64,000 nucleotides of DNA from Patescibacteria group bacterium (GCA_030837225.1 JAUPKX010000005.1:8049-72048); one strand, 5' to 3'; positions 7,185-53,600 are shown, numbered from the stretch's first letter. Notes: generated from the letters alone by a model not told the origin. Numbers and translations: made by a program.

Positions 7185-7642
7185 TAATGAGAGTTTGATC
7201 CTAGCTCAGGATGAATGCTGGCTGTATGGATAAGGCATGCAAGTCGAACGGACCGCAAGGTCAGTGGCAGACGAGGTAGTAACACGTAGGTACGTACTCC
7301 GAAGTCGGGCATAGCCAACCGAAAGGTTGGGTAATTCCCGATAGTCCCGTAAGGGTAAAGATTTATCGCTTCGGAAGCGGCCTGCGTAGTATCAGCTTGT
7401 TGGTAAGGTAACGGCTTACCAAGGCTACGACGCTTAGGGGAGCTGAGAGGCTGACCCCCACCGATGGGACTGAGACACGGCCCATACTCCTACGGGAGGC
7501 CGCAGTCGAGAATCTTCCGCAATGGACGCAAGTCTGACGGAGCGATACAGCGTGATGGACGAAGTGCTTCGGTACGTAAACATCTTTTATGTGGGACGAA
7601 ATTATTGACGGTACCACATGAATAAGGGGCTCCTAACTCTGT

Positions 7643-9843: not shown

Positions 9844-9934
9844 CAATCCGCCCGTCAAGTCAGGGAAGTTGGGGGTACCCGAAATCTTGGTTTATCCAGG
9901 ACTACGGTAAATTCAATGACAAGGACTAAGTCGT

Positions 9935-10738
9935 AGGGGCAATCTGCCCTAGTTGCGACTCTAAGCGAGTAATCGCTTTGCAATCAATTCGGCTATATGC
10001 TGGAACATCTGAGTATCCCTCGCTACGAGGTATAATAATAATTATGCCCGTGACAATGCGTAGGGTGCAGAAAATCAGCAGGGAAGGCCCTGGGGGACAG
10101 CAACTCAGCTCGTCCTCTAGGGAACCCTCAGAGACTACACGCCGAACTCCTCGGTGGACAAAGCGGCAACGCATCGCTCTTGCATACCTTAATGGTGCGC
10201 TTGGTGACGCGAGCCGCAATAAGAGATCACGCATCCGCTATGCGCAAAAGTATCCAGAATGGCTTCGAATGCTTCAGCAGTTACTTGCTGAACTTGGAGC
10301 GAAATCCTGGATGTATAAGGAGGGAAAACAGCGCTCAGTATTCGTACTTGAGACTTGCTGTCCTCAACTTGATTTTGCATGTAACGGAGAGCATCTTGAA
10401 ACGCGAGACGAAAGAATCGCCTACCTTCAAGGGTTCTTCGATGCTGAAGGTGGTGTTCCGCATGGGATACACGCACGCTTCTATATTCAGTTAGTCCAAA
10501 AAGACCGACCGAAAGTAGAGATGCTTGCTCGCATGCTGGACACACTCAGTATCAAGACTGGTGTCGTACATAATCCAAGTGTTCGTGTTGATCCTGAATA
10601 CTGGAGAGTATTCGTATCGACCCGTTCGCATGCTGCGTTCGCGCAGATAATTGGTTCGCGACATCCGGTCAAAGGACCGATCCTCCAGACGAGGATGAAG
10701 ATATAGTCCATGCCGCATGGCGACATGCGGGAAATCAT
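9935..10738 (+). mobile_element. Group I intron 3 in 16S, inserted inside 'AAGTCGT|AACAAGG'. It carries a second homing endonuclease ORF.
   Basis: Exon junction 'aagtcgt'+'aacaaggcacgg' restores the conserved helix-45 sequence. The exon ends in T and the intron ends in G. It shares the motifs 'ggctatatgctggaa' and 'gatatagtcc' with intron 1. Confidence 0.7.
9978..10706 (+). CDS. LAGLIDADG homing endonuclease (intron-encoded), a paralog of the first.
   Basis: 'LAYLNGALGDAS' and 'LQGFFDAEGGV' are LAGLIDADG-type motifs. The ORF is wholly inside the third 16S insertion. Confidence 0.75.
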   Translation: MQSIRLYAGTSEYPSLRGIIIIMPVTMRRVQKISREGPGGQQLSSSSREPSETTRRTPRWTKRQRIALAYLNGALGDASRNKRSRIRYAQKYPEWLRMLQQLLAELGAKSWMYKEGKQRSVFVLETCCPQLDFACNGEHLETRDERIAYLQGFFDAEGGVPHGIHARFYIQLVQKDRPKVEMLARMLDTLSIKTGVVHNPSVRVDPEYWRVFVSTRSHAAFAQIIGSRHPVKGPILQTRMKI

Positions 10739-19173: not shown

Positions 19174-20488
19174 AACACTCGCCGTGTGTCTTGTTGGTGT
19201 AGGAGCACTCGCCCCGATGCCAACGCATGCGGCAGTAACCATAAGCGAGATTGCCTGGATGGGAACTTCCGTTGATAGCGGGAGTTTTTGCGAATGGGTA
19301 GAGCTCGCAAATGATGGTCTTGAATCAGTGTCTCTCTCGGGATGGACCCTGAAGACTACTGATGGCGGCATGTCAGTATCGCTTGCGGGCAGCATAGATG
19401 CTGGAGGTTTCTATCTAATAGAGCGCTCAACACCAACGGCATGTCCTGATCCAGTTCCAGGCATTAGTGCTGACCTGAGTCGTACGTTCGGTGGCGGTCT
19501 TTCAAATGCCGGAGAAGTATTGGTGCTTGCATCCGGAAGTACTGAGATGGATCGGATAGATGCATCCCTAGGATGGGAGGGATCGGTGGGTGGTGATAGT
19601 GCCCTTAAATACACAGCTCAGAGGAACGGGACAGCATGGGTTACAGCCGTAGCGACACCGCGGGCACTGAATGCAACTGAATCAGTTGCGGTAGTTACGA
19701 GCTCTTCAGAGACAACTACTTCCTCATCAAAGAAGACTGTCGGGAATCCCGTACCAACGCTCCTCATTGAAACGGGCGGAGATCGTGTTGTCTCTACGAA
19801 AGCGCATACGAAGTACCAACCGATTGTCTATGACAGTACTGGGCGCCATGTGCGGCAGCCGTATCTCACGTGGGCGTTCGGGGACGGCGGAAGACACGTA
19901 GGAACTAATGTTGAGCATGCGTATCGAGAACCTGGAGAATACCTCGTCGTTGTCCGTGCACAAGACCGCTACAGTCAGGGCACTGCATCGTTCATTGTTA
20001 CGGCAGACCCAGCAGACATACACATTACGGGTCTCTCTGAGAAGGGAGTAACTCTCAAGAATAGCGACACCCGTATTCTCGATCTTTCTCGATACCAGCT
20101 TGTATCAGGAAAGCAACAATTCAAGATTCCTGAAGACACCCAGATACTTCCGGGCCGCGCGGTTATCTTTCCGCCAGAGACAACCAGGCTTGCAACGACA
20201 ACATCCTCTATAAGTCTGTTGTATCCGAGTGGGGAGGTAGCGTCTGTCTATACGCATGCCACGACGACGCCAGCAGTGCTACCTAAGACCTCTGAGCCCA
20301 GTACTAATGTATTGAGAGCGGTCGAAGTACCAGCCAAAGCAGCGCCTCAGAATGATCAGACTATGATGGTCCCTGCCCAGACAATTGAACCTGTCGGGGC
20401 AGGGACGCTTTCTGCACTTCGAGCCTTTCTGGCGCCACTCTGGCCTCCTGTCCCGGAATATCGTAGGCTTTCCATAGTACTTCCATGA
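19166..20488 (+). CDS. Secreted protein with a signal peptide, two lamin-tail-domain-like modules and a central PKD domain. The start is taken at 'MYKTLAV', overlapping the upstream stop by 8 nt.
   Basis: Signal peptide 'MYKTLAVCLVGVGALAPMPTHA'. LTD-like 'ISEIAWMG...CEWVELANDG...SGWTLK'. PKD motif 'WAFGDGGRHVGTNVEHAYREPGEYLVVVRAQD'. Confidence 0.65.
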   Translation: MYKTLAVCLVGVGALAPMPTHAAVTISEIAWMGTSVDSGSFCEWVELANDGLESVSLSGWTLKTTDGGMSVSLAGSIDAGGFYLIERSTPTACPDPVPGISADLSRTFGGGLSNAGEVLVLASGSTEMDRIDASLGWEGSVGGDSALKYTAQRNGTAWVTAVATPRALNATESVAVVTSSSETTTSSSKKTVGNPVPTLLIETGGDRVVSTKAHTKYQPIVYDSTGRHVRQPYLTWAFGDGGRHVGTNVEHAYREPGEYLVVVRAQDRYSQGTASFIVTADPADIHITGLSEKGVTLKNSDTRILDLSRYQLVSGKQQFKIPEDTQILPGRAVIFPPETTRLATTTSSISLLYPSGEVASVYTHATTTPAVLPKTSEPSTNVLRAVEVPAKAAPQNDQTMMVPAQTIEPVGAGTLSALRAFLAPLWPPVPEYRRLSIVLP

Positions 20489-27977: not shown

Positions 27978-30035
27978 ATGAATACTCCTAAAATCGTCAT
28001 TACCGGCGGCCTCGGCTTCATTTTCTCCTACGTCACAGAGTACTTCGTTCGGAAGGGCTGGCAGGTGGTGGTCATCGATAATCTGTCTGCGGGGGCTAAT
28101 CCGGACATTATCGACGGCTCCTTTGTCCACCATAACGTCCATACGAGCAATCCGGACATCGTACCTCTCATCATAAAGGAGAACCCTGACTATCTAATCC
28201 ACGCAGCGGCGATCACGGACGTCGATTACTCGACGCTCGAGCCGCATCGTACGATGACCAAGAATACGCTGGGTACGCTGCATGCATTTGAGGCTGCGCG
28301 CAGACTTCCGAACCTCAAAAAGTTCATGTACGTGGCGACTGACGAGATATACGGAGAGTGCGACCGTCCCATGACGGAAGAGGACCTTATTCAACCGAGA
28401 AATCCGTACTCGTGTTCGAAGGCGGTAGGATCCCTGGTGCGGGTCGCGTACGACAACACCTTTCCGATACTAAAGGGTAAGACCGTCGAGACGAGAATGT
28501 GTAACATCTTTGGTGCACGCCAGGATACGCGCAAGATCATGCCGCAGATAAAGAAAAGCCTCGAGGAAGGGTACTCTATCCCACTGCATCAAGACGGGAC
28601 GGGATACCGAGAGTATTTGTATGTAAAGAACGTCGCACCAGCAGTCGACCTCATATTGCGCGAGGGGACCGGCGCGTACAACATCTCGCTCGGGAACGGA
28701 CTTACAGTCCGCGAGCTCATACAGAGAGCAGAGACGCTCACGGGAAAAAAGGTCACGACGCACGAGGCAAATCGTCCGGGTATGGACATGCAGTATCAGG
28801 CTGATGCAACGCGCCTTCTAGATCTCGGCTGGAAGCCGCTCTACACCTTCGACGAAGGACTCAAGGAATATCTCACCGAGCATTCAGAGGAGCAGCAGAA
28901 GAAAACTCTTATTATCGGTACGAACGATCTGCTCATGGCAGGTGCGCAACGACTGGCTATAGATCAGTTGAACGCGGTAGACCGGACTGTGTTCGATGTT
29001 CACCTCGTCGTACTCATGGAGTTTCGGGGTCAGGCAACCTTCGATGATCTGATACCCGACGACGTAACAGTTCACCGCATCCGATACTCAGGACTTGCGG
29101 ATATCGCTGCGTGGCAGCGCCTATATCGAGTCCTTTCTCGCGTACGTCCTGACATCGTTAAGACTGCGACGTTCTTCAGTAACATCACCTTCCTTATTTT
29201 GAAGGTGTTCTTCGGCTATGCAGTTATCGCGGCAGAGCATAATACTGTCCGCGCGAAGCCCACATGGCAGCGTTTCGTTGATCGACTCCTCCTTCCAAGG
29301 GCGTTTACGGTAGTGGCCGATTCGAAGGCGGTGGTTGATTTCGTGAGTTCAACCGAAGGCATCGCACCAGAGAACTTCACCATTATTTACAACGGTGTCG
29401 ATCTTGATGCGGTCCGCTCGAGCAAGGAGCTCTATGCAAGAGATCGCGCAAGCATCCGTGCCGAATACGATATTCCTTCTGACGCGTTTGTTATCTTCAC
29501 TGCGTCAAGGTTGGTCCACCAGAAGAACCATCACCTCATGCTCGAAGGCTTCGCTAAGGTGCGCGATCGAGAGAAGACATACCTCGTTATCGCTGGAGGA
29601 GGGAAGTATGCTGAAGAACTAAAAGTGCTTGCAGAGGAACGAAATATCAGTGATCGTGTCCTCTTCCTTGGTGAGCAGAAGAATCTTCATCGTCTCTATG
29701 CGACTGCTGATATGTTCTTACTCACCTCGAGACACGAGGGTTTCTGCATCGCGGCCATGGAAGGACTTGCGTTCGGTTTGCCGCTCGTGTCCACTCGCGT
29801 GGCAGGAGTGTCCGAATATCTACGGGATGGGGAGAATGGCTTCTTTATCGAGGCAACACCCGAGGACATTGCAGCGAAGATCGAACGAGTTGTTGATTTC
29901 TCTAGCGAAGAGCGCTCAGGCTTTTCGAGGGCTGCAGAGGAGACCGCAGAAAACTACAGCCTTGCGAAGTATGCTGATGAATTCACATCGCTCCTAAAGC
30001 GCATTGTGGGCGATATGGACTATTCGAATGAGTAA
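27978..30035 (+). CDS. Bifunctional fusion of an N-terminal NAD-dependent epimerase/dehydratase (about aa 1-310) and a C-terminal complete GT4 glycosyltransferase (about aa 315-685).
   Basis: 'IVITGGLGFIFSYVTEYFVRKGWQVVVIDNLSAG' and 'YSCSKAVGSL' are SDR epimerase motifs. 'SRHEGFCIAAMEGLAFGLPLVSTRVAGVSEYL' is the GT4 E-x7-E motif. Confidence 0.7.
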   Translation: MNTPKIVITGGLGFIFSYVTEYFVRKGWQVVVIDNLSAGANPDIIDGSFVHHNVHTSNPDIVPLIIKENPDYLIHAAAITDVDYSTLEPHRTMTKNTLGTLHAFEAARRLPNLKKFMYVATDEIYGECDRPMTEEDLIQPRNPYSCSKAVGSLVRVAYDNTFPILKGKTVETRMCNIFGARQDTRKIMPQIKKSLEEGYSIPLHQDGTGYREYLYVKNVAPAVDLILREGTGAYNISLGNGLTVRELIQRAETLTGKKVTTHEANRPGMDMQYQADATRLLDLGWKPLYTFDEGLKEYLTEHSEEQQKKTLIIGTNDLLMAGAQRLAIDQLNAVDRTVFDVHLVVLMEFRGQATFDDLIPDDVTVHRIRYSGLADIAAWQRLYRVLSRVRPDIVKTATFFSNITFLILKVFFGYAVIAAEHNTVRAKPTWQRFVDRLLLPRAFTVVADSKAVVDFVSSTEGIAPENFTIIYNGVDLDAVRSSKELYARDRASIRAEYDIPSDAFVIFTASRLVHQKNHHLMLEGFAKVRDREKTYLVIAGGGKYAEELKVLAEERNISDRVLFLGEQKNLHRLYATADMFLLTSRHEGFCIAAMEGLAFGLPLVSTRVAGVSEYLRDGENGFFIEATPEDIAAKIERVVDFSSEERSGFSRAAEETAENYSLAKYADEFTSLLKRIVGDMDYSNE

Positions 30036-31492: not shown

Positions 31493-32299
31493 ATGGAAAA
31501 GATACAGGCAACGGTCGGCATCCTGACCTTCAATTCAGGAAATACGCTCGCCCGCGCGCTAGAGTCTGTGCAGAATTTTGCTGATATCGTCATCTGCGAT
31601 GGAGGGTCTGCTGATGACACGCTCGACATCGCGGCGTCCTTTGGTGCTCGCGTAATAACGCAAGACAGAAACTTCCAAAACGGGAACGGCGTGTTGCGGG
31701 ACTATGCAGGAGTCCGTAACCAATGCCTCGATACTGCGGTCTTCGATTGGTTTCTGTATATCGATTCGGACGAGCAAGCGACGCCCGAGCTTGTTGCGGA
31801 GATTTGCAGGATTACTGAACAGAGAGAGCCCGTATTCCTTGTCTACAATGTCTCGCCTCGTATCGTGCTCGATGGTGTTCGGATACAACACTCATCGAAT
31901 TACCCTGGCTGGCAGAACCGTTTCTTCAATAAGAGAAGTGGTGCTCGGTTCCGTAAGGCTGTGCACGAGCGCATCGATTACGACAAAGCGGAGTATCCGG
32001 CAGGCTTTCTAAAGGGGCACTGGCTCTACTTCATCTCAAACAATCAGGACGGGGTGAAGAACAGGAAGTATGCGTATATGGACGCGACGCATCATGCTAC
32101 GAAGAAGTCTTCCGTGTTCCTTGTTCTCGTAGGGAAGCGGCTCATTGTGCTCCTGAAGGCAGTGCTGAAGATCCTTTATAACCGCGTGCGCTATGGTAAC
32201 AAGGCTAATCTTCCTCTCGTGCTCGAGTTCACGCGCGTGCAGTACCATATCTATTTCTTACAAGCGCTTGCAAGACACTTCTTTAACCGAACATCATGA
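31493..32299 (+). CDS. GT2-family glycosyltransferase.
   Basis: 'VGILTFNSGNTLARALESV...IVICDGGSADDTLDIA' and the 'DSDE' DxD region. Confidence 0.7.
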   Translation: MEKIQATVGILTFNSGNTLARALESVQNFADIVICDGGSADDTLDIAASFGARVITQDRNFQNGNGVLRDYAGVRNQCLDTAVFDWFLYIDSDEQATPELVAEICRITEQREPVFLVYNVSPRIVLDGVRIQHSSNYPGWQNRFFNKRSGARFRKAVHERIDYDKAEYPAGFLKGHWLYFISNNQDGVKNRKYAYMDATHHATKKSSVFLVLVGKRLIVLLKAVLKILYNRVRYGNKANLPLVLEFTRVQYHIYFLQALARHFFNRTS

Positions 32300-33396
32300 G
32301 GATCGCCTACCTCGCTAACGTGCGGATACCAACGGAGCGTGCCTACGGCCTGCAGATCATGAAGACCTGCGAGGCGCTCGCGAACGCAGGTGCAGATGTG
32401 ACGCTTGTGACACCGTTTCGCCGGAACACGCTTACAGATGAAGCTTTCTCGTATTACAACGTTTCCCCTGTTTTCAGGCTACTTACATTGCGCACGCCGG
32501 ACTTGGTGAGCTTCGGACCTCTCGGCTTCTTATTATCGACCTTCTTTTTCGCCGAAGCAGCGCGATGGAAGAAGGAGTTCTTCGAAGCTGATCTCGTCTA
32601 CTCACGCGATGCTCTCGTGCTTATACAGTACGTGCTCCTGCAAAAGCCGTTCGTGTTCGAAGCGCATGCGAAGCCTTCGTTCGCGTCTCGCGTTGTAGCC
32701 AAAAAGGCCCGAAATGTCGTGGTGATCTCCAACGGTCTACGCCGTGCATATGAAGCGGCAGGAATCCCTCCTGAGCGCATTACCGTTGCGCCGGATGCTG
32801 TCGATGAGCATCTATTCGACGGGGTGCCGGACCGTTTTGCGGCGAGAATAGCCCTCAAGCTTCCTTCGGAAGCCAGTATCGTAGTGTACGCAGGCCATCT
32901 TTATCCTCGTAAGGGAGCGGTAACGCTGGCTCGAGCAGCGACACACCTTTCTGGGATTGAGATTGTATTTGTCGGAGGCACATCGACTGATATAGCAGCC
33001 TTCAAGAAGGAGTGGGGAGTCCAGAAGAACATACGTATCGTTGGGCACGTGCCGCACGCGCAAGTAGCGTGGTATTTGCGTGCTGCTGACGTGCTTGTGC
33101 TGCCGAATTCTGGTAAGGACACGGATTCTGCGGAGTTCACCTCACCCATGAAGCTCTTCGAGTACATGGCATCCGGCACGCCGATCGTCGCATCAGATGT
33201 GCTCTCCTTGAGAGAGGTACTCAATGACGGAACCGCTATGCTCGTATCGCCTGACGATGCTCAGGCGCTTGCTGAAGCAGTGTCAGGGGCGCTTTCGAAT
33301 CGGGAGGCTATGGGGGAAAAAGCAGAAAAAGCTCTCGCGCGGGTCAAAGACTATACGTGGACCGAGCGCGCCAAAAGAATCCTTACGACGTGTTAG
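32296..33396 (+). CDS. GT4-family glycosyltransferase.
   Basis: GT-B organisation with the C-terminal 'FTSPMKLFEYMASGTPIVASDV' motif. Confidence 0.75.
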   Translation: MRIAYLANVRIPTERAYGLQIMKTCEALANAGADVTLVTPFRRNTLTDEAFSYYNVSPVFRLLTLRTPDLVSFGPLGFLLSTFFFAEAARWKKEFFEADLVYSRDALVLIQYVLLQKPFVFEAHAKPSFASRVVAKKARNVVVISNGLRRAYEAAGIPPERITVAPDAVDEHLFDGVPDRFAARIALKLPSEASIVVYAGHLYPRKGAVTLARAATHLSGIEIVFVGGTSTDIAAFKKEWGVQKNIRIVGHVPHAQVAWYLRAADVLVLPNSGKDTDSAEFTSPMKLFEYMASGTPIVASDVLSLREVLNDGTAMLVSPDDAQALAEAVSGALSNREAMGEKAEKALARVKDYTWTERAKRILTTC

Positions 33397-34672
33397 TGGA
33401 GCCTGCGCGTAGGAAATAACCACGGACCAGGAACGCGCTTGTTGCGAGCGAGAATCCGCGCGCGATGATGCGCGCCACAATCGCGCCAACAAGGCCAAAA
33501 AGGATTGTAAAGACGATCAGTGCTGCGATCTGGATAATCGGCGTCGCGATATTGAATATGTAGAGCTCGCGTTTGGCAGCGTGTGCTTGAAGAAGGGCGG
33601 TCGGTATGGTCGCCGAAGTCATGATGAGCGATAGTGCGAAGAACTGGGAGTACCCGACAGCGTTCATATAGGTCGGCAGGAAGAGCGAGAAGGCGAATGG
33701 AGCGATAACGATATAGGCGAGCGACGCTACGCCGAGTACGCCAGTGAACGCCCATAGACGGCTCCAGAAATTACTGCGTATCTCGTCGATGCTTCGGTTA
33801 GCGAACTTCGGCATCGCGAGGGTGGAGACCGCACTGAAGAGGCCGCGTACCTGTTCTGGCATCGCTGTCGCAATCGCGTAGACAGCGAGCTGTACCGCGC
33901 CGAGGAAATGGAACACCACGAGCTTGTCGATCTGTGCCGCTATGGTCGTCAAGAGATTCATTGCACTGAAGTGCCCGATCAGCGAGCGAAGGTCTGGACT
34001 TAGGCGATCGTTCGGGCGGTAGACAACGTAGGTGTACGCGTACAGCGACATGCCAGTGAGCACTGTAAGACAGAGGTACATGAGGAGGAATACAACCGGG
34101 CTTTGGGTGTAGAACATGGCAATCCCAAGGCCGATAGCGGGGACGGCAGCGAACACGATTCCAAGCAAGGTCATCGCCTTGAAGTTTTTCTTGCCGGAGA
34201 GGTAGGCACCAAAGAGATAGGACGGCTGGAGAAGTGGACCTAGCAAGCCGATAACGAAGAAGCCGCTCGAAAGCAGCACGTTGTCCATGAAGAGATAGTA
34301 GAGGCTCGCGACAAAGGAGATGGCCATGAGGGGTAAACCACCAATGATGCTCCACAGAAAGGAGTGACGGAATGCACCTTCGAATCCGCGGGCAACGGCC
34401 TGGGAAAGGGCCGCAGGGAGCCCGGTCAGAGTGAATGCGGCAAGGATCCATAGGGCCGCGAGTAGGTAGCGGTAGGTGCCGTATACTTCCGGAGACACGA
34501 ACTGTGCGAACCCGATAACAAGAAGTAGCGCGATAAGACCGCTCGCGAGCTGGTCAATCGTGAGCCACAAGCCGCCGATGCTCAGGTATTTAAGATCTGT
34601 GCGCATAGTGCGCTCGAAGAAGCCGAAGATCCGGTTCCGTTTGGGCGAGGGCGTGCTAGGGTCAGGAGGCAT
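33383..34672 (-). CDS. Polysaccharide biosynthesis protein / oligosaccharide flippase (MOP superfamily, Wzx-like).
   Basis: About 12 predicted TM helices across 429 aa with a typical Wzx-like hydrophobic profile. Confidence 0.65.
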   Translation of the reverse strand: MPPDPSTPSPKRNRIFGFFERTMRTDLKYLSIGGLWLTIDQLASGLIALLLVIGFAQFVSPEVYGTYRYLLAALWILAAFTLTGLPAALSQAVARGFEGAFRHSFLWSIIGGLPLMAISFVASLYYLFMDNVLLSSGFFVIGLLGPLLQPSYLFGAYLSGKKNFKAMTLLGIVFAAVPAIGLGIAMFYTQSPVVFLLMYLCLTVLTGMSLYAYTYVVYRPNDRLSPDLRSLIGHFSAMNLLTTIAAQIDKLVVFHFLGAVQLAVYAIATAMPEQVRGLFSAVSTLAMPKFANRSIDEIRSNFWSRLWAFTGVLGVASLAYIVIAPFAFSLFLPTYMNAVGYSQFFALSLIMTSATIPTALLQAHAAKRELYIFNIATPIIQIAALIVFTILFGLVGAIVARIIARGFSLATSAFLVRGYFLRAGSTNTS

Positions 34673-34745: not shown

Positions 34746-35537
34746 ATGGAAAGCTCCTATAATCGCACTGAGACCGCGCGCCGGTATGTGGAGTCGCGTT
34801 TCCCGAATGCTTCACCGGCTGAACGGGAGAAGATAATAAAGGACTGGGAGACGAAGCCGAAGCAGTCAGTAGGTATCGCTGCGGATTTCGAAGTGCGCGC
34901 TCATTCACTTAAAGATGCTCGGGTGCTCGATGCCGGATCAGGGAACGGAGGTATCGGTATTGCGTTCGCTGCACGTGGTGCCCTCGTCGAGGGTGTCGAC
35001 ATCGAGGAAGAGCTTGTCGAGGTTGCGCGTTCAGAAGCGCTGGCCGCTAACTCGTCTGCGGCATTCCGCTGGTACGAAGGGACCACGCTCCCGTTTACGG
35101 ACCATACATTTGATGCTGTGCTCTCCGTGAGTGTTATAGAGCATGTGAGTGATCCGGTGCGCTATTTCAGCGAGATCCTGCGAGTCGTAAAACCCGGAGG
35201 TGTACTGTATCTCGCGTTCCCGAATCGCTTGGTACCAGTGGAGACGCACACTGGCCTCTTTGGTCTCTCGTATCTGCCTGCACCACTCGCTCGGGTATAC
35301 GCGCGTGCAACCGGACACAATCCGATCGAGGATAATAATCTCCATTTCTATACGTACTGGGATATGCGTCGCTTGCTCGCGGCCGCTAGTGTTGAAGGGC
35401 GCGCTTGGAAGATACGTGAAGAAGAAGGGAAGAGTACGAGCGTCCGGGTGCGCTTCCTGAAGCATGTACTTGGCGTATTCGGTATTCCACACCAGGCTCT
35501 CTTGCCGCACGTGATGCTTCTAGTCGAAGCGACGTAG
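34746..35537 (+). CDS. Class I SAM-dependent methyltransferase.
   Basis: 'VLDAGSGNGGIGIAFAARGALVEGVDI' motif I/II and 'LSVSVIEHV'. Confidence 0.65.
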   Translation: MESSYNRTETARRYVESRFPNASPAEREKIIKDWETKPKQSVGIAADFEVRAHSLKDARVLDAGSGNGGIGIAFAARGALVEGVDIEEELVEVARSEALAANSSAAFRWYEGTTLPFTDHTFDAVLSVSVIEHVSDPVRYFSEILRVVKPGGVLYLAFPNRLVPVETHTGLFGLSYLPAPLARVYARATGHNPIEDNNLHFYTYWDMRRLLAAASVEGRAWKIREEEGKSTSVRVRFLKHVLGVFGIPHQALLPHVMLLVEAT

Positions 35538-36923
35538 CTCGGGAGGGGCGAAGAGTTTCCTGCCACGCATCCTGTTCTGGTTTATGAGCGATGCTGCGCC
35601 GAACGCTGTCATGAGGATGAATGGCTCAACCGGCATACGGTAGCGCGCGTGTGCGATAGGTCCCGTCACAAGTGCGAAGTACATCGTGAACGAAAACAGC
35701 ACCCAGGCAAGTCTCCGATTAGGAGAGCGCCACAAGCCGATGATCATCAGAAGGGTAATGATGCCCCAGAACATATTCTCTGCGAGGGTCCAGCCATGAT
35801 TCTCGAGTACGGTCAGGAGCATCGGAAGCGAGAAAGGATACAGCGCCTGGATTAGGGACGGCTCTGGCTCAGGATCGAAGGTCGGGTGGAGAGCCTCCGC
35901 GAAGAACCAATAGTTCTGGGCACCACTTGAGAGGAAGAACTGGAGGAAGGTCGAGAGATGGAAGATCGCGTAACGGACAGGATGCTCGCTGATGACTTCT
36001 ATCGCAACTTCTTTTAGTGCTGCGCCGCTCGCGAAGTCCATCGGTACGGGTCCTGGAGGGAAGCCCGCACGCTCGAGAAGGGTATAGCGCGCCTCTATGT
36101 TCGATACGTCGGTGAGTGATTCGTAGAACTGAACTGCATTCTGTCGGAAGAGCACGAAGGGTCCGGTTGATGCGAAGGAGAAGTGGTCGAACACTTCGTA
36201 GTTTCGGTAATACCACGGGAGAAGTGCGGCGACGAACACCACGGACAAGAGCGCGAGCGCGGTGAGATGTCGTCGCGTGATTGATCCCCACCCAATGAAG
36301 AAAACGAGGTAGGCACCGATGAAGAAAGGAATGATATACAAGGACGCCGGACGAATGTAGGTGGCGACAGCAAGAAGGAGTCCAGCAATCGCGAAGCGCA
36401 CGAACTCGCCTTGCCACCTCGAGAAGAAGCAGAGATACACCGCGAGCATAAAGCAGAAGATGAACAGGGTCTCGGTCAGGAGAGAGGCAACAGCAAGGAG
36501 TGTTCCAGGGAGAAGGAGATAGAGGAGGGTAAGTGCGAAGGCCCAGCGTCTGTCCATAAACTTCTGCGCCATGGCATTGAGCAGGAGAAGTGTGAGGTAA
36601 AGGATGATGACCTGAGCTATGAGTACCGGATAGAAGCTCCCTAACAAGGCGTAGAAGGGTGCAAGGAACGCAGGGTAGCCGGGCGTTCGCCACGCATCAG
36701 GCTCGAGTGGAGTGCTGGTGCTCAGAGAGAAGACCCTGGAGTCCACCATATTTCGAGCGAGAGTCCCGAACTCTCCTGACATGGTGCCGGTAAGTGCCGG
36801 AAATTCTGTAGAAACAGGTTCTCCTGCACTGTTTGCGACATTCGTGAGGTACAGAAGACTCGCTCCTGCAGCGAGCACAGTTACTATAAAAAGGAACAAG
36901 AATGGTCGTGATCCGGTGAGCAT
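35520..36923 (-). CDS. Integral-membrane GT-C-fold glycosyltransferase (ArnT/PMT/GtrC-like polyprenol-phosphate-sugar-dependent transferase).
   Basis: 467 aa with about 11 TM helices and loop regions. The operon context with the GT2 polyprenol-P-sugar synthase and GtrA supports the role. The family assignment is inferred, not motif-proven. Confidence 0.5.
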   Translation of the reverse strand: MLTGSRPFLFLFIVTVLAAGASLLYLTNVANSAGEPVSTEFPALTGTMSGEFGTLARNMVDSRVFSLSTSTPLEPDAWRTPGYPAFLAPFYALLGSFYPVLIAQVIILYLTLLLLNAMAQKFMDRRWAFALTLLYLLLPGTLLAVASLLTETLFIFCFMLAVYLCFFSRWQGEFVRFAIAGLLLAVATYIRPASLYIIPFFIGAYLVFFIGWGSITRRHLTALALLSVVFVAALLPWYYRNYEVFDHFSFASTGPFVLFRQNAVQFYESLTDVSNIEARYTLLERAGFPPGPVPMDFASGAALKEVAIEVISEHPVRYAIFHLSTFLQFFLSSGAQNYWFFAEALHPTFDPEPEPSLIQALYPFSLPMLLTVLENHGWTLAENMFWGIITLLMIIGLWRSPNRRLAWVLFSFTMYFALVTGPIAHARYRMPVEPFILMTAFGAASLINQNRMRGRKLFAPPELRRFD

Positions 36924-36928
36924 AAAGA

Positions 36929-37603
36929 TTAGTCTATAAAGCGATAGATAATAACGGCGAACAGAATGCGGAAGCCATCACGCCAGTTGATTTTCTTTCC
37001 TTCATTGTAGTCCCTAGGTGCGTAGGAAATAGGGACTTCAACCAGACGAAAGCGCTTCTTGAGGAGCTTCGCGATCAGTTCGTGCTCGTAGGCGAATCCG
37101 TCCGAACGAACCGTAACCGAGTCCACGCCCGTTTTCGTGAAGAGTTTGTAGCCTCCAGTGTATTCGGAGACGCGCGCCCCATACAACACGTTTGTGGCGA
37201 TGGTGATCGCATGATTCCCGAGCTTGTAGAAGAGTCCCCGTTTAGGGTTCCTTGGACGTACACCCGTTACTAAGTCTGCGCGTCCTGAAAATAATGGCTC
37301 GAGAAGCGCAGGGAAGTCGGCAGGATCGTACTCGAGATCAGCATCCTGAATGAGTAAGAAGTCTCCCGTGGCATGCTTGAAGCCGGTACGGACCGCCGCG
37401 CCTTTTCCGGGCCTCTTTTCTCTAAAGACACGAACGCCCGCAAAGGCGCTCGCGATAGCGTAGGTTTCGTCCGTGGAGTTATTATCGACGACGATAATTT
37501 CCTTGGTGGCGTTTCCGATAGTGGCGCGCTGTACCCGCTCAATTACCTCCTTGAGCGTCCGTTCTTCGTTAAAGGCAGGAATGACAATGGATACCGAGGA
37601 CAT
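36929..37603 (-). CDS. GT2 polyprenol-phosphate sugar synthase (dolichol-phosphate mannosyltransferase / GtrB-like).
   Basis: 'VSIVIPAFNEE', 'IIVVDNNSTDET' and 'IQDADLEYDP' are canonical DPM1/GtrB motifs. Confidence 0.75.
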   Translation of the reverse strand: MSSVSIVIPAFNEERTLKEVIERVQRATIGNATKEIIVVDNNSTDETYAIASAFAGVRVFREKRPGKGAAVRTGFKHATGDFLLIQDADLEYDPADFPALLEPLFSGRADLVTGVRPRNPKRGLFYKLGNHAITIATNVLYGARVSEYTGGYKLFTKTGVDSVTVRSDGFAYEHELIAKLLKKRFRLVEVPISYAPRDYNEGKKINWRDGFRILFAVIIYRFID

Positions 37604-37681
37604 TGGAGCGGTGAATTACCAAAACTATACCACGCGGTATTTCTTTGACGTGCCCGACCCCGTATACTCAGAGGTACTGCT

Positions 37682-38392
37682 ATGAGCGCTACTAAGTATG
37701 ATGGCCGCGACCTCGAGGCCATGTCGTTCGCGAAGAACTATCACGAGTGGATACTTGCGATGTTTCGTCCGTTCCTTCGAGGTAAGGTGGCAGAGGTGGG
37801 GGCTGGGTCAGGAAGCTTCTCCGAGCTTCTCTTAGAGGAGTCTATCGCCGAACTCGTCGCGATTGAACCGTCTGACGACATGTACCGTCTCCTCGTTGAT
37901 GAGACGAAGCATGACGAGCGCGTGCAAACGTACAACGGTTTCTTTTCAGGAATCGGTGCCGAGCGCCCTTCGTATTTCGATACGGTTGTATATGTGAACG
38001 TCCTTGAGCATGTCGAAGACGATCGGGGAGAGCTCATTGCGGTCTTCGAAGCGCTGCGGCCTGGGGGTCACCTGTGCATCTTCGTACCCGCATTGCCGTG
38101 GCTCTATAGCGCGCACGATGCGTCGATAGGTCATCATCGCCGGTATCTGAAGGGACTGCTTGTTGCAAGCGCGCGCAGTATCGGTTTTGAGATCGTAGAA
38201 GCACGGTATTTCGATTTCTTCGGGATAGTCCCATGGTTCGTACTCATGACGCTCCTCAAGACGAAGCCAGGGGCGGGAAAGGTGGCCTTCTACGATCGTC
38301 TGGTGGTCCCGGTAGCCCGTATGATCGAGTCGCTCGTTACGCCGCCCATCGGCAAGAACGTTCTGCTCGTCGTGAGAAAGCCGGAGGGGTAG
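37682..38392 (+). CDS. Class I SAM-dependent methyltransferase.
   Basis: 'VAEVGAGSGSFSELL' motif I and 'VNVLEHVEDD'. Confidence 0.6.
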   Translation: MSATKYDGRDLEAMSFAKNYHEWILAMFRPFLRGKVAEVGAGSGSFSELLLEESIAELVAIEPSDDMYRLLVDETKHDERVQTYNGFFSGIGAERPSYFDTVVYVNVLEHVEDDRGELIAVFEALRPGGHLCIFVPALPWLYSAHDASIGHHRRYLKGLLVASARSIGFEIVEARYFDFFGIVPWFVLMTLLKTKPGAGKVAFYDRLVVPVARMIESLVTPPIGKNVLLVVRKPEG

Positions 38393-38394
38393 CC

Positions 38395-38802
38395 TTAGGT
38401 CTTCTTGAAGACGAACGTCTGGTAGGCCACGTAGGCCGTAATCGCGATTACGCCGCCGCAGATGATCTGTGCCGCGATGTACCAGACGCCGAATGTCGAC
38501 ACGAGCACATACATGAGAGCCGTGTTGATGCAGAGGTTCCCGAATGTGACGAGAATGTATCCACCGAGCTGGATCCCCATCTGATTCGGCTCGCGATTCT
38601 GAAATGCCCAGAATTTCTGGAAGCTGAACCCGGCCGCAATGGAACCTATATAGGAGAGGATAGAGGCAAGGAGATAGTGCACCTCGCCGTACTGCACGAG
38701 AAGGAAAAGGATGAGGATGTTTACTCCCGCAGCCGACGTGCCGGCAATAAGGAAACGCAGGACTTTTTGGACCTGAGCAGAACGCAGTAGGGCGATAATC
38801 AT
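38395..38802 (-). CDS. GtrA-family small membrane protein (polyprenol-P-sugar flippase-like).
   Basis: 135 aa with four TM segments. N-terminal 'KVLRFLIAGTSAAGVNILILFLLV' matches the GtrA consensus. Confidence 0.7.
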   Translation of the reverse strand: MIIALLRSAQVQKVLRFLIAGTSAAGVNILILFLLVQYGEVHYLLASILSYIGSIAAGFSFQKFWAFQNREPNQMGIQLGGYILVTFGNLCINTALMYVLVSTFGVWYIAAQIICGGVIAITAYVAYQTFVFKKT

Positions 38803-38878
38803 GGCTTGTTGCCTTGGAGTATACCCTGTGTCATCCCGGATAGGCAGTTTGAATTAAGGCGTTTATACTAGCTGTACT

Positions 38879-41056
38879 ATGAAACAAGCTGCCCACTGGA
38901 TCGCGATTATTGCGCTCTTTACCATCCCGTTCCTGCCGCTCTATGTCTCAAGTGAGCTCTTCTTTCCATTCATAACAGGAAAGGGATTCGCTTTTAGAAT
39001 CTTGGTTGAGATTGCACTCGTCGCGTACGTAGTCCTTGCGGTACTCGACAAACGGTATCGTCCGAAATTCTCTTGGGTACTGGCGCTCTTCGGCGGGTTC
39101 GTTCTCTGGATGGCGGTGGCCAATTTCTTCGGCGTCCATCCTGCGAAAGCCTTCTGGAGCAACTACGAGCGTATGGATGGCTGGGTAACACTGGCACATC
39201 TCTTCGCGTTCTTTGTAGTTAGCGGATCAATTCTTGCGGTTGATAAACTGTGGCGCAGATGGTGGATGTATTTCATTTCGGTGGCCGTGGTGGTGTGCGG
39301 GTATGGTGTTCTGCAGCTTATGGGCGCTGCAGACATTCACCAGGGTGGGGTACGTGTTGATGCATCCTTCGGGAACGCTATCTACCTTGCGGTGTACCTC
39401 ATGTTCTCGATGTTTGTGGCTGGGTGGCTTGCAGTTCGATCGGGTAAACAGCTTAGGTACTGGCTGATTGCATTCATTGCGCTGGCGTTCGTCATACTCT
39501 TCTTTACTGCGTCACGTGGTGCGCTCATCGGTCTAGTTGCGGGAGCAAGTATTGCTGGCCTACTCTATCTCTATCTCGGTCTAAAGGATGGAAAGAGCGG
39601 GATTAAATCGGCAGGATTTAAGATCGTTGCTGGTCTGCTCGTGTCACTTGTTGTTGCGGGCGGAGCGTTCTACCTCCTCAGGGATTCCGCGCTTGTGCAG
39701 GGAGAGCCAGCGCTCGCTCGTCTTTCCACTGTCTTCTCTTTGAGTGGGGAGCTCAAGGTTCGTTCAACCATATGGGGTATGGCCTATGACGGCGTACAAG
39801 AAGATCCTCTAACGGGTTGGGGCCAGGAAGGCTTTAACCAGGTGTTCAACAAGTACTACGTGCCTGCGCTCTATGAGCAGGAGACCTGGTTTGATCGTGC
39901 GCACAACATGTACATCGACTGGCTGGTTGCGGGCGGATTCCCGGCGTTGCTTCTCTTCGTTGCGCTCCTTCTGGCGGGCATAGTTGCACTTGTTCGAGCG
40001 TCAGACGTGTCACGTACAGAACGCATGCTCCTTGTTGGCGCTTTAGTTGCGTATGCAGTTCAGGCGCTCGTTGTATTCGATAACCTCTTCAGCTACGTTC
40101 CTTTTGCTGTGCTTCTTGCTATGGCACACGCAGCATCGGGTAGACCAGTCGCTGTGCTCGAGGACCTGCCTGAAGTATCTAACCAGAACCATGCGGGTAT
40201 TTTGGGAGCGGGAGGAGTTGTAGCCCTCGTTGCTCTTGTGTGGATGATAAACGTGCCGAGCATACAGGCTGCGAATCATCTGGTATACGCGGTGTCTCCG
40301 CTCCCGCAGGGTGCAAAAGCAAACCTTGAGTACTTTAAGCAGGCGCTTGGGGACGGATCGTTCGGAAGCCAGGAAATACGTGAGCAACTATCCATTCATG
40401 CGGCTAAGGTGGCTGCAGACGAGAAGATCCCGAAAGGCCTACGAAAGGACTACGTTGAACTCGCACTTCTTGAGATGGGTAAGGAAATTGAGACCTCTCC
40501 AAACGACGCTCGTCTTCGCGCACAGTATGCAAGTATTTATGAAGCTACCGGAGACCTGGACGCGTCGCTTGCTCAGATAGAAAAGGCTATCGAGCTCTCG
40601 CCCCAGAAGCAGGCGTTGCATCTTAGTAAAGCTTTCAAGCTTATAGATATGGGACGCGTTGAGGAAGCGCGTGCAGTATTCCGCTATGCGTATGCGCTCG
40701 ACACCTCGTTCGAGCAGGTTGCGGTGACGGTGGCCTCTGGGTACCTATTGATGGGAGACAATGCCGAAGCGAAAGAGCTTCTCCTAGAAGCACTTGGTAC
40801 CACAACACCTGACAACGAGAGTCTCTTCTTTGCCTACTATCAGACAAAGCAATGGAATGAGCTTATAGCAGTGGCGCGTGCTCGTGTCGCAGCGACGAAC
40901 GATTCACCAGCAAGCAGACTAAGGCTCGGGCAAGCGCTTGCAGCAGCGGGTCGCTTTAGTGAGGCGCGCGCAGAAATAACCGCAACCATAGAGAAGTATC
41001 CTGAAGTCCGTGCAGAAGGGGAGGGACTTCTCACCCGCATACCTGTCTTACGATGA
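38879..41056 (+). CDS. O-antigen ligase/polymerase-like (Wzy_C) membrane protein with C-terminal TPR repeats.
   Basis: About 10-12 TM helices in the first 420 aa, followed by a soluble helical repeat region with TPR-like periodicity ('AQYASIYEATGDLDASLAQIEKAIELSP'). Confidence 0.6.
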   Translation: MKQAAHWIAIIALFTIPFLPLYVSSELFFPFITGKGFAFRILVEIALVAYVVLAVLDKRYRPKFSWVLALFGGFVLWMAVANFFGVHPAKAFWSNYERMDGWVTLAHLFAFFVVSGSILAVDKLWRRWWMYFISVAVVVCGYGVLQLMGAADIHQGGVRVDASFGNAIYLAVYLMFSMFVAGWLAVRSGKQLRYWLIAFIALAFVILFFTASRGALIGLVAGASIAGLLYLYLGLKDGKSGIKSAGFKIVAGLLVSLVVAGGAFYLLRDSALVQGEPALARLSTVFSLSGELKVRSTIWGMAYDGVQEDPLTGWGQEGFNQVFNKYYVPALYEQETWFDRAHNMYIDWLVAGGFPALLLFVALLLAGIVALVRASDVSRTERMLLVGALVAYAVQALVVFDNLFSYVPFAVLLAMAHAASGRPVAVLEDLPEVSNQNHAGILGAGGVVALVALVWMINVPSIQAANHLVYAVSPLPQGAKANLEYFKQALGDGSFGSQEIREQLSIHAAKVAADEKIPKGLRKDYVELALLEMGKEIETSPNDARLRAQYASIYEATGDLDASLAQIEKAIELSPQKQALHLSKAFKLIDMGRVEEARAVFRYAYALDTSFEQVAVTVASGYLLMGDNAEAKELLLEALGTTTPDNESLFFAYYQTKQWNELIAVARARVAATNDSPASRLRLGQALAAAGRFSEARAEITATIEKYPEVRAEGEGLLTRIPVLR

Positions 41057-50198: not shown

Positions 50199-50679
50199 TG
50201 TACATAAGGGGTCATGGCAAGCATCCAGATAAAGGGTGCAATATCCTCTATTGTAATGCGCTGCATGCACTTAACTGGTGAAAATACCTTTTTAAGTCTA
50301 ACAATCAGTAACTATACCTATATATAGGATACGTAAGTGCAATAGAGTCTAGCTATTTCAATCCGACTTACTAGGTAAGTACTAACTATAACGGATTGCC
50401 GACCTTACGTGCTTAATTAATGTATAGATACGATAGAGTTCGAGCTTTTTTGTTGAGTCGTGGCTCTTTGCACACAAACTTAAATACTCTAGGTATGAAA
50501 TGTTGATCATGGCGCCTAAATCTTCTGTGAGAATTTTGTTTTTCTTTATAAACAAATTCCTATGGTTGCGATCGATAACTTTGTGAACTTACGCTTAAGA
50601 CTATCCACAAATGAGTATGCGGTAAATGCTAAATAACAAGCTAAAATGTAGCTAATTCGGATATCCGACCTACTGCACC

Positions 50680-53600
50680 TTGAACTCTCTTCTCCAGAAA
50701 AATTTAATCTCAACGAAAGAGGCTTCTGCACTTTCTGGTTACAACGCCGACTACTTGTCGAGACTTTGTCGTGAGAAGAAAATTGCGAGTTCACAAGTTG
50801 GTCGCACGTGGCTGATTGAGAGAGCCTCACTCGAGGTTTTCATGGAGACTCAATTAGATAGGAAAATTGAGCTTGCTGAGAATCTTGCTCGGGAGAGGGA
50901 GCTTGAATATAGAAAGGCAAATAGTTCTGTCACCCAGGTTTTTGAGGCGGGGAATGATCTTGAGAATAAGATGCGCGTGGCAGCGAGTTCAATGCTTGGA
51001 GCTTTTTCCTCTGTACGCATACCACGTTCTATGCCAGTTATGAGTGGTCGTGCATTTGCTGCAGGACTTACTGCAGTCATACTCGGCGCTAGCGTAACAC
51101 TAGCGGGTAGTGGCGTTGTGGCACGCGCAGGTGAAATGTTATTGGCTTCAGCATTTGAGGTTCGCGCACTCGTTGTTACTGCTGTCTCCACATCAAACTC
51201 ACTTGCAGTAGAGAAGACTGCGGAATTTTCTAGAATTGCAGAAGATGAAATAAAAAAAGTAGACACATCGCTTGTTCGTGCGGCAGACACACGAGTGGCA
51301 ATGTTTCCCCTTACTCTCGGTGGAGTCATTGAGAATTCACACGAGCCGGTAGAGATGACTGAACTCGCGTATGCCCGTGCAAATGAAATCTTTGAAACGT
51401 ATCCCGAGCCTATTGCGTCCACGCAGACGGTTGAAAAAATCATGTATGCAGCAATGCACCCTAAAGAAGTGCTGGCAACAATTGCACGTGAGGCGATGTT
51501 TGCATACAGCCGACTTGGCGTGTACGCACTCAACGATATTCAAACCGTCCTCGCTCTTCACCTATATGGAGTTGAGGCGGCAGCGAACGGCCTCCTATCA
51601 GTTAGTGACAATACGAGGGATATCGCAGGACAGGCACCACTAGCTATCGGAAATGCATTTGTTACTACGTCCTCTGCAGTGCTGTCTTCGTACGAACATG
51701 CGGTCTACGCATATGTCGAGAACATTGATGTACTACCGAGCGCTATCACCGGTTTGGTATACGGGCTCGGGAACGGTATTGGCGGCTCAGTAGCGATGGG
51801 TGTACAGACTGCACCGGTTGCCTACGAAGAGAGCGTACTGGCCTTCGTAGAGGAGTCAGTATCTGCAGGATCGATGATCTCCGAAGGCTCGTTCGCCTTT
51901 GGAAAAGAAGCAGATAGAACGGTTTCAGGCCTTCTGGAAGCTGAGGACCGTGCCATAGTCCAGTCAGTAGAGAGTGTAAGGCTGGCCGTTACGAGTATTG
52001 AGAACACGACAGCAAGCGCAGCGCTCGCCATCGAATCAGTACCCTCAGTGGCTACTGACAAAGTCCTTGGAATTGTGGGAGGTATTGCACTTCGTATCGA
52101 GTCGACGGATACCAGCATGCTCTCAGCATCGCCGCTAGTTTCTCTTGATATTGATCGATTCATTCCGGGGTTCCTACGGAACGTAACTGCGGTTCTGGCG
52201 CATGCAGTGGGCAGCGCTTTCCACGGAATCTTCGGTCCGCTCGCTGGTTTCTTCGGCGCGTCGGAAGAAGTGGGACTCGCGGTTATCCCAAGCGATGGGA
52301 GTTCATTCTCTGGACCAAGTGGTGCAACCGGTACGGAAGAGGCAGTGAAAGGAAACACGACGGTCTATACCGGACCGGTAACCATCGTACGTAACGAATA
52401 CCCAACGGTGACGTACGGCGGGGTACCGCAGTCCTACGTCGACGAGCGCTACGAGTTCCTTCGCCGTACGCTTTATAACCGAATCGAAGATGTTTCAAAT
52501 GACGACACGTTCTACGGCGAGGTACGAGATAGCGGTATTTACGATAGCAGCATTGTTGATTCGACTTTTACCAATGGCGAAATCATCGATTCAACAATCA
52601 CTGGAGGAACTATCACGGGCGCTGCCCTCGATGTTTCGACCTCGACTATCACTGGCTCGCTAACTGTTAATGGAGACATCGCAGCTAATGCCATTGTCTC
52701 GACAAGCTCGACAAGTACGAACGCTACGTCAACGAATCTTTTTGCAACTAATGCATCCTTCACCAACCTTCTTGGCGGGAGTGCAACAATAACGAACGCA
52801 ACCTCGACATCGTTCTACGCAACACTCGCAACCATCGTTGATGGATTCTTCACGAACCTCACCGCGACACTCGCAACCATTACGAATGCGGTTATCACAA
52901 ACCTCACCGCAACGAACGCGACGCTCACGAATGCGACATCGACTAACGCTACGTCAACGAACCTCTTCGCCACCAACCTCACGGCTACGAGCGCAACCTC
53001 AACAAACCTCTTTGCTACAAGTGCACGCATCACGACCGGTATCATCGACGCGCTCACCTCACCGCTCGCAACCATAACCACTGCGATTGTCACAAACCTC
53101 ACGGCAACGAACTCAACGCTTACAAACGCAACCTCAACAAACTCGTTCGCACTTTCGTACCTCACCCCGTCCAGACTCTTGTCCGTCGGATCGAATGGCG
53201 TCGCAACCTCAACCAGCCTTTCCTCATGGGTTGCGGGTACCCTAAACCAACTCACCGTAACGGATAACGGTACCGGGGGAATCACACTCTCGCTCCCTTC
53301 GACCATTGCGATCGGCACCTCGCAGGTAACTACCATCCGAAGCGATGGTGCTACCTCGACCTTTGGTGGCGGTATTCAGGCCTCTATTGTCGAGGGAGGG
53401 CAGTATATCGCTGGTCCGTACGTCCTTGCTACCTCAACAACCGCTACCTCTGCATTCTCGGGCAATATTGCAGTTGGCAGGAATGCGACCTTTGGAACCA
53501 GTGCCTCTGATCTCCTTACGGTTAATAGCTCCGTAGCATCAAACCTCATTCCGACCACCAACAACACGTATGACTTCGGCTCAACCGCAAGCTACTGGCG

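Follow-up and report, generated by a model that had tools for sequence, protein, structure and literature searches.

We analysed a window of 64,000 nucleotides from a Patescibacteria group bacterium of the Paceibacteria/Parcubacteria type (GCA_030837225.1 JAUPKX010000005.1:8049-72048), "the window" meaning this whole stretch of DNA. The subject is a trio of genes coding for a GtrA-family protein, a glycosyltransferase of family 2 (GT2) and a polytopic glycosyltransferase of the GT-C superfamily, with a methyltransferase gene (MT2) interleaved. The four genes were as follows in the open reading frame (ORF) listing.

35520-36923, minus strand, GT-C, 467 aa
36929-37603, minus strand, GT2, 224 aa
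37682-38392, plus strand, MT2 methyltransferase, 236 aa
38395-38802, minus strand, GtrA, 135 aa

The coordinates given for these genes in the original prediction, an earlier reading of the same DNA, matched the listing exactly. GtrA, GT2 and GT-C all lay within 3.3 kb, and GT2 and GT-C were co-directional neighbours with a gap of 5 bp. The trio had been described as three consecutive minus-strand genes. The common strand was correct, but the genes were neither strictly consecutive nor one operon, because MT2 on the opposite strand parts GtrA from GT2 and GT-C. GtrA is set off in this way, and the locus therefore has three transcription units. Two short divergent intergenic regions were found at 37604-37681 and 38803-38878. 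A hydropathy scan gave approximately 11-13 hydrophobic segments in GT-C and four in GtrA, and it gave none in GT2 or in the methyltransferases.

Coupling of the three genes in related genomes

Synteny was compared in nine related Paceibacteria-type loci taken from species-representative genomes and assemblies. A GT2 of the dolichol-phosphate-mannose synthase (DPMS) type was located within 7 kb of GT-C in eight of the nine loci, and GtrA was present in five. Distant GT-C homologs (25-28% identity) likewise adjoined a small GT2, in L014 and L017. In L016, which belongs to another phylum, a 46%-identical GT2 was followed by a small EamA-type membrane protein, the alternative, ArnE/F-like type of flippase.

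Domain fusions were examined in ten members of the GT-C family that were unusually long. Six carried an N-terminal GtrA domain (P0334, P0340, P0352, P0366, P0389 and P0461), and two carried an N-terminal GT2 domain (P0430 and P0453). The GtrA domain of P0352 showed 34% identity to the window GtrA (E = 2e-27). The GT2 domain of P0430 was 38% identical to the window GT2 over the full length, with the DADLEYDP and EGKK motifs included. Synteny and fusions, two independent lines, indicated that the trio works together. Functional coupling of GtrA, GT2 and GT-C was supported, at the level of sequence, by clustering, recurrent linkage and fusions. The GtrA–GT-C and GT2–GT-C fusions and the linkage recurring in relatives also supported the extracytoplasmic lipid-linked glycosylation module that had been proposed for this locus.

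The closest multi-domain GT-C homolog, P0329, was a GT-C–GT4 fusion. Its C-terminal family 4 glycosyltransferase (GT4) was 37% identical to a GT4 of the window at 32296-33396, here called GT4b, and orthologs of GT4b directly followed the GT-C gene in L006, L008, L010 and L013. This fusion and this gene order tied GT-C to the glycan of the surrounding gene cluster. Another long homolog, P0406, was a GT-C–GT9 fusion, and P0329 and P0406 each join an extracytoplasmic and a cytoplasmic (GT-B) transferase on one chain.

Two further arrangements were observed among the related loci. In L013 (818-2594), the orthologous GT-C was preceded, at a distance of 5 kb, by a second, shorter PMT_2 GT-C (370 aa) in tail-to-tail arrangement with a DPMS-type GT2 of 226 aa. 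This pair meant that some relatives run two such modules in one cluster. In L008 (2545-3939, plus strand), a DPMS-type GT2 was found inside a 464-codon frame, whose N-terminal half matched Methyltransf_23 weakly and below the threshold (24.3 bits). Either a fusion of a methyltransferase with GT2 or a wrongly chosen start codon could account for this frame.

Predicted functions of the three proteins

GT2 was predicted to be a polyprenyl-phosphate monosaccharide synthase of the DPMS/ArnC/GtrB type. It matched Pfam Glycos_transf_2 (PF00535, E = 7.6e-35). In NCBIfam, the archaeal dolichol-phosphate (Dol-P)-hexose enzyme AglJ ranked first (3e-41), below its equivalog cut-off, and full-length matches to PpgS (1e-17) and ArnC were also obtained, both below the equivalog cut-offs. 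The top match among PDB sequences was the dolichol-phosphate-mannose (Dol-P-Man) synthase of P. furiosus (PfDPMS, 5mlz; 1.3e-19, residues 3-205), followed by three ArnC entries. DPMS and ArnC were thus nearest in sequence and also in structure, over the full length. The second GT2 of the cluster (31493-32299) matched SunS and GmaR in the PDB instead, which meant that the affinity to DPMS and ArnC was specific to GT2 at 36929-37603. The AlphaFold2 (AF2) model built from a 41-sequence alignment had a pLDDT of 91.9, and the C-terminus formed an amphipathic helix at residues 207-219. The family is very large; over 7,900 hits were obtained at E<=1e-10, and the proteins have about 228 aa.

The residues of GT2 were mapped through the PDB-hit alignment onto the PfDPMS residues listed in PMC12992685, as follows.

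PfDPMS Asp89/Asp91: GT2 D87/D89, invariant in the GT2 family
PfDPMS Arg117: GT2 R116, invariant
PfDPMS Phe177 ('back door'): GT2 F170, invariant
PfDPMS acceptor loop 202-208: GT2 R197/E201/K203, with R197 and K203 invariant and E201 nearly so
PfDPMS Gln93: GT2 Glu91, replaced
PfDPMS Lys178: GT2 A171, without equivalent

The DxD pair was kept on alignment, with D87 and D89 invariant in 41 homologs together with A88, R116, F170, R197, G202, K203 and K204. In a wider alignment, E201 was invariant in all but one of 30 sequences. The PfDPMS motif 89-DADxQHPP-96 was not matched. GT2 has DADLEYDP at this site (Gln93 to Glu91, His94 to Tyr92 and Pro95 to Asp93), and both Asp residues were kept. The canonical Dol-P-Man synthase motifs that had been claimed for GT2 were therefore found in part. 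The DAD, the equivalents of Arg117 and Phe177 and the acceptor-loop Arg, Glu and Lys were present, but Gln93 is Glu and Lys178 has no equivalent. The ligands of the Dol-P phosphate in PfDPMS were also compared; Arg131 aligned with K127, which is in a variable loop, and Ser135 aligned with G129. From the alignment, the invariant K153 may act as a substitute phosphate ligand.

GtrA is a candidate translocator or hand-off partner for the polyprenyl-phosphate (polyprenyl-P) sugar. It matched PF04138 (GtrA_DPMS_TM) with an E value of 1.6e-20, and the whole domain was covered. Together with the four hydrophobic segments, this confirmed its assignment as a GtrA-family protein with four transmembrane (TM) segments. 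The best PDB match was the GtrA-like TM domain of PfDPMS, and it was weak (E = 0.023). This domain has been seen holding flipped Dol-P-Man (PMC12992685). In addition, GtcA is genetically required for the glycosylation of lipoteichoic acid (LTA) and wall teichoic acid (WTA) (PMC7389260). Orthologs of GtrA were found at the same position in L004, L005, L007, L009 and L012. A reading of GT2 and GtrA as a split PfDPMS was also considered, and GT2–GtrA fusions were expected among the close GT2 homologs in that case. None was found in the top 120, and the comparison was kept as an analogy only.

GT-C was predicted to be an extracytoplasmic transferase that uses a lipid-linked sugar, of the PMT_2/ArnT-like kind. 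Its PMT_2 score was 24.7 bits, just below the gathering score of 26.1, and the LA_3751/3752 family matched with 7.6e-7. PMT_2 also covers ArnT-like enzymes. The 467-aa sequence was 100% identical to an NCBI entry from a metagenome-assembled genome of a 'Patescibacteria group bacterium'. About 37 close homologs with 45-65% identity were found, almost all in Patescibacteria. Most of them passed PMT_2, and some were named 'glycosyltransferase family 39'. An exhaustive profile search at E<=1e-30 gave 548 cluster representatives, mostly of 440-490 aa, with end-to-end matches. A PDB sequence search with GT-C alone gave no meaningful match, and useful matches required a profile and a structure model. 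The AF2 model from a 52-sequence alignment had a pLDDT of 94 and a pTM of 0.92, and it contained an all-helical extracytoplasmic insert at about residues 250-360. When the model was compared with the PDB using Foldseek, the top 35 matches all belonged to the GT-C superfamily (STT3, AglB, PglB, ArnT, Pmt4, Emb, ALG9, PimE and ALG3). In a further comparison, the scores were 21.1 for ArnT, 20.4 for ALG12, 20.2 for GPI mannosyltransferase I (GPI-MT-I), 19.3 for AglB and 18.4 for Pmt4, and the next unrelated protein scored 7.4. The 467-aa protein had been called polytopic and GT-C-like, and its structural neighbours were exclusively of that superfamily, not transporters or permeases.

The profile of the GT-C family also matched GPI-MT-I (E = 6e-5), and this alignment included the invariant R79-x-P81 and E151. 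The family invariants were N58, R79, P81, G82, E151, R240, N241, R260, R279, E354, N375-H-G-W378, E382, N383 and R427-Y-R429. The first external loop had acidic residues at positions 51 and 61 in 32 of 36 sequences. By analogy to other enzymes of the GT-C superfamily, E51 or D61 is likely the catalytic acid. No Pfam hit for a MIR domain was obtained in GT-C, and a C-terminal oligosaccharyltransferase (OST)-type domain was absent. GT-C had neither sequence-level membership of the ArnT family (GT83) nor the C-terminal alpha/beta periplasmic domain of ArnT.

STT3, AglB and PglB, which use diphosphate (PP)-linked donors, led the Foldseek list. This would fit a case in which the trio is not one pathway. 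GT2 would then be a cytoplasmic transferase acting on a polyprenyl-PP-linked repeat, GT-C would be a polymerase, ligase or oligosaccharyltransferase with a PP-linked donor, and GtrA would be unrelated. The absence of a TM segment from GT2 and the separate transcription units are in line with this. However, it is opposed by the GT2–GT-C and GtrA–GT-C fusions and by the lack of an OST-type domain in GT-C. The full-length match of GT2 to DPMS and ArnC, which takes in the acceptor loop and the interface helix, also argues against it. We regarded this explanation as extremely unlikely.

From these sequence features, the trio is probably a three-component extracytoplasmic glycosylation system using a lipid-linked monosaccharide. 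With the genes, families, folds, conserved motifs, recurrent linkage and domain fusions directly observed, three steps were proposed. In the first, by homology, the peripheral GT2 would use a nucleotide sugar at the cytoplasmic face to load polyprenyl phosphate with a single sugar, which would yield polyprenyl-P-sugar. A metal would be bound by the DAD, and Arg116, Arg197, Glu201 and Lys203 would hold the lipid phosphate. In the second, again by homology, the four-helix GtrA would assist in bringing this lipid-linked sugar to the outer leaflet, by translocation or by hand-off. In relatives, the fusions of GtrA to GT-C suggested that GtrA works in physical proximity to GT-C. In the third, GT-C, judged by its fold and family, would pass the sugar on to an extracytoplasmic acceptor. 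This acceptor is the weakest step of the proposal. It would most likely be the glycan of the surrounding GT4/GT2/Wzx/Wzy_C cluster, modified as a side-branch or cap.

Several points weigh against the three-component system. The trio is spread over separate transcription units, and a promoter and terminator pattern scan of 33-41.2 kb was uninformative, with counts at or below the shuffled expectation. No GT2–GtrA fusion was present among the top 120 GT2 homologs, which were all 224-266 aa long. The acid in the first loop of GT-C is not invariant. GtrA was absent from the available flanks in four of the nine related loci (L006, L008, L010 and L013), and no GtrA was detected by a sensitive hidden Markov model search of L006, L008 and L010. 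This absence meant that GtrA is not obligatory or is encoded elsewhere. In addition, flippase activity has never been directly shown for any member of the GtrA family (PMC11127046).

The glycan cluster, the acceptor and the methyltransferases

A glycan cluster that extends over about 20 kb (20485-41056) surrounds the module. The order of the cluster is epimerase/dehydratase, three GT4s, CofD-like, GT4, epimerase–GT4 fusion, polysaccharide deacetylase, methyltransferase, GT2, GT4, Wzx-like, methyltransferase, the module and Wzy_C+TPR, and murB and secA come after it. The window contained at least six GT4 and one GT2, besides Polysacc_synt, Wzy_C and Bac_transf. The features that bear on the backbone glycan, and a second methyltransferase (MT1) dependent on S-adenosylmethionine (SAM), were as follows.

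32296-33396, plus strand, GT4b, cytoplasmic glycosyltransferase, 366 aa (Glyco_trans_1_4, E = 1.9e-24)
33383-34672, minus strand, Wzx-like MOP-family flippase, 429 aa (Polysacc_synt, PF01943, E = 4.7e-11)
34746-35537, plus strand, MT1, SAM methyltransferase, 263 aa (Methyltransf_11, E = 6e-21)
38879-41056, plus strand, Wzy_C polytopic membrane protein with C-terminal TPR, 725 aa (Wzy_C, E = 1.7e-19, plus TPR families)
37-1440, Bac_transf, WbaP-like priming enzyme, the only such enzyme in the window

GT4b and the module probably act as partners on one glycan. The Wzx-like gene was syntenic in L004-L006, L008, L010, L011 and L013, and Wzx and SecA each recurred in six or seven of the nine related loci. 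The Wzy_C-TPR gene was found in eight of nine, the exception being the 4.3-kb fragment L011. No PDB sequence match was obtained for the membrane domain of the Wzy_C protein. Its domain would fit a polymerase and, equally, a ligase or an O-oligosaccharyltransferase. The Bac_transf primer was 19 kb from the nearest gene of the glycan cluster, with SecDF, an rRNA operon with an intron-bearing 16S gene, mur ligases and a TraG-like gene in between. A complete Wzx/Wzy-type pathway had been claimed for the locus. The Wzx-like, Wzy_C+TPR and Bac_transf genes do exist, but the primer is distant and the Wzy_C protein is ambiguous. A Wzx/Wzy-type backbone pathway was therefore plausible and not proven, because Wzy_C is also a ligase/O-oligosaccharyltransferase domain and the primer lies far away.

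Other features were noted in and around the cluster. The epimerase–GT4 fusion (27978-30035, plus strand) is a 685-aa protein that joins an NAD-dependent sugar epimerase/dehydratase to a complete GT4, and its orthologs in L004 and L005 were 67-72% identical. Between the mur genes and the glycan cluster (17449-20488, plus strand), the gene for a TrwB/TraG-like type IV coupling-protein homolog (574 aa) preceded one for a protein of 482 aa that has lamin-tail and PKD domains. The 16S rRNA gene at 7183-10730 was split, with Rfam SSU hits at 7183-7763 and 8361-9460. Its insertions carried LAGLIDADG homing-endonuclease ORFs (7826-8482 and 9978-10706), a group I intron was called at 9923-10730, and a tRNA-Ile followed the split gene at 11119. 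A single ORF of at least 4448 codons started at 50656 on the plus strand and ran off the end of the window (50656-63999). An HTH_17-like match was located at its N-terminus, a Peptidase_S74 (endosialidase chaperone) and a bacterial surface Ig-like domain were near residues 3980 and 4350, respectively, and the tail was rich in Pro, Ser and Glu. The product resembles the giant surface proteins that are common in genomes of the candidate phyla radiation (CPR), and it is a conceivable target of glycosylation.

The original prediction named both a 'GtrABC-like' system, with a glycan acceptor, and a 'Ppm/Pmt-like' system, with a protein acceptor. On sequence grounds either one may apply. With the same donor chemistry, GT-C could be a Pmt-like O-glycosyltransferase acting on Ser/Thr of secreted or surface proteins, such as the giant surface protein, pili or an S-layer. 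Its Pfam match is PMT_2, and the family 39 names of close homologs agree with this. The giant surface protein, which has Pro/Ser-rich linkers and a length of at least 4448 aa, starts 12 kb downstream, and synteny of SecA with the module was seen in most of the related loci. However, ArnT, ALG12 and GPI-MT-I outscored the PMTs as structural neighbours, and GT-C has no MIR or other PMT luminal domain. GT-C is also embedded among polysaccharide enzymes, and in relatives it is fused to such GT4 and GT9 enzymes, which points to a glycan substrate. We considered a protein acceptor unlikely.

An ArnT-like role was weighed in the same way. The acceptor would then be a membrane glycolipid, an LTA-like polymer or lipid II/peptidoglycan, and not the product of Wzx and Wzy_C. 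This was judged very unlikely. ArnC was the second-best neighbour of GT2, the module adjoins murB and is near other mur genes, and the three-component systems of Gram-positive bacteria decorate LTA and WTA (PMC7389260). However, GT-C is only 14% identical to ArnT, its extracytoplasmic domain is an unrelated all-helical insert, and the proximity to mur genes may just reflect a compact genome. The cluster glycan was kept as the most likely acceptor of the proposed three-component system.

The interleaved gene MT2 codes for a class I SAM-dependent methyltransferase (Methyltransf_23/12/11) that was predicted to be cytoplasmic. Among curated families it had no equivalog, and its PDB matches were weak. 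An MT2 ortholog adjoined GT-C in all nine related loci, which suggested a link between MT2 and GT-C. The MT2 family was unusually conserved, with 53-64% identity among the top 120 hits, some of which were labelled Gammaproteobacteria or Lysobacterales. On three large contigs (L018, L019 and L020, one labelled Gammaproteobacteria), homologs with 55-58% identity were in unrelated contexts. Their neighbours were topA/gidA-like genes, a Ser/Thr kinase and infA, and neither GT-C nor GT2 was found near them on these three contigs. Because homologs elsewhere have unrelated contexts, inherited gene order explains the MT2 adjacency as well as function does. MT2 is at most a candidate component of the module, with adjacency in nine of nine loci set against the unrelated contexts of 55-58%-identical homologs.

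MT2 as a fourth component is a doubtful proposal. It would O-methylate the polyprenyl-P-sugar or a nucleotide precursor in the cytoplasm, and GT-C would then cap a surface polymer specific to Patescibacteria, or the giant surface protein, with a methylated sugar. If true, this would be a methyl-sugar variant of a three-component system. We met no such variant in the literature, and no literature search was aimed at it. The methyltransferase between GT-C and GT2 in L017 was not homologous to MT2. On the other side of the module, the genes of MT1 and GT-C are convergent, and their 3' ends overlap by 18 bp. Orthologs of MT1 (65-73% identity) adjoined GT-C in L004, L005 and L011 and were about 9 kb away in L007 and L012.

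Comparison with known systems and meaning of the locus

Three-component systems were defined according to PMC11127046 and PMC7389260. The locus is a further member of these well-described (Gtr-type) extracytoplasmic glycosylation systems, with no new mechanism. In its logic, the locus comes closest to the Gram-positive CsbB/GtcA/YfhO-type systems and to Shigella Gtr, and the nearest solved structures are ArnT/ArnC and PfDPMS. The GtrA-GtrB-Gtr* (GtrC) cassette of Shigella and Salmonella, which glucosylates the O antigen, likewise has a GtrA-family protein, a GT2 polyprenyl-P-hexose synthase and a GT-C, and it decorates a Wzx/Wzy-type glycan outside the membrane (PMC11127046). However, GtrB has two C-terminal TM helices and the window GT2 has none. 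The window has no gtrABC operon, the order and strands of the genes differ, and a methyltransferase is interleaved. In addition, the host has no O antigen of the lipopolysaccharide type, and the locus is not a phage cassette.

The Gram-positive LTA, WTA and rhamnan systems (CsbB/GtlA with GtcA and YfhO/GtlB; GacI-GacJ-GacK-GacL) share a single-membrane envelope and a C55-P-sugar made by a GT2 (PMC7389260; 10.1101/180810). A GtrA-family protein, GtcA, is required there, and a GT-C completes the transfer to the wall polymer (PMC7389260; 10.1101/180810). The Gac system differs in that GacI uses the DUF2304 partner GacJ and the Wzx-type flippase GacK, not GtrA. The essential R95 and N132 of GtcA were compared with the window GtrA by eye only, and the position before the conserved Tyr (helix 3) was G, E or R among the orthologs.

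PfDPMS (type III) is one polypeptide, whereas the window has two genes on separate transcripts. Its catalytic domain is joined to the GtrA-like TM domain (pocket Asn248/Asn277/Phe338), whereas the window GT2 ends at residue 224 without a TM segment. The motif DADxQHPP is DADLEYDP in the window GT2, and Lys178 is not conserved. In the ArnC-ArnE/F-ArnT system, the flippase is of the EamA/SMR type, not GtrA. Its acceptor, lipid A, is absent from the window host, no ArnA, ArnB or ArnD genes were found, and the identity to the window proteins was low, at 14% (ArnT) and 25%.

The mycobacterial system of PpgS (Rv3631), Rv3632 and a GT-C, which modifies arabinogalactan with GalN, was also compared. 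PpgS is a TM-less GT2 of about 226 aa, which matched the window GT2 end to end, and its activity is stimulated by a small membrane protein partner. However, the window GT2 was far below the equivalog cut-off of PpgS (64 vs 370 bits). Rv3632 was ruled out as GtrA-like, since it is a homolog of DUF2304/GacJ and not of GtrA (10.1101/180810), and for this reason the Rv3630-32 trio is a looser parallel.

Particular to this locus are the TM-less GT2, the compact GT-C, which carries a helical insert on its external side, the methyltransferase gene between the others and the Patescibacteria host. Patescibacteria are mostly uncultivated, have tiny genomes and are attached to other cells. To our knowledge, almost nothing has been established experimentally about their surface glycans. 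Because these organisms live attached and have tiny genomes, surface glycans are probably central to host contact. As an annotation, the assignment of this locus was a routine, correct call and not a new mechanism. It meant that a Paceibacteria-type organism has retained the usual route of decoration with lipid-linked sugars, within a conserved glycan cluster beside murB and secA. In addition, a compact GT-C family of about 460 aa was defined, and its fusions to GtrA and GT2 are direct genomic evidence of GtrA working alongside GT-C. The GtrA–GT-C fusions are the most useful by-product of the analysis, and they bear on the role of GtrA proteins.

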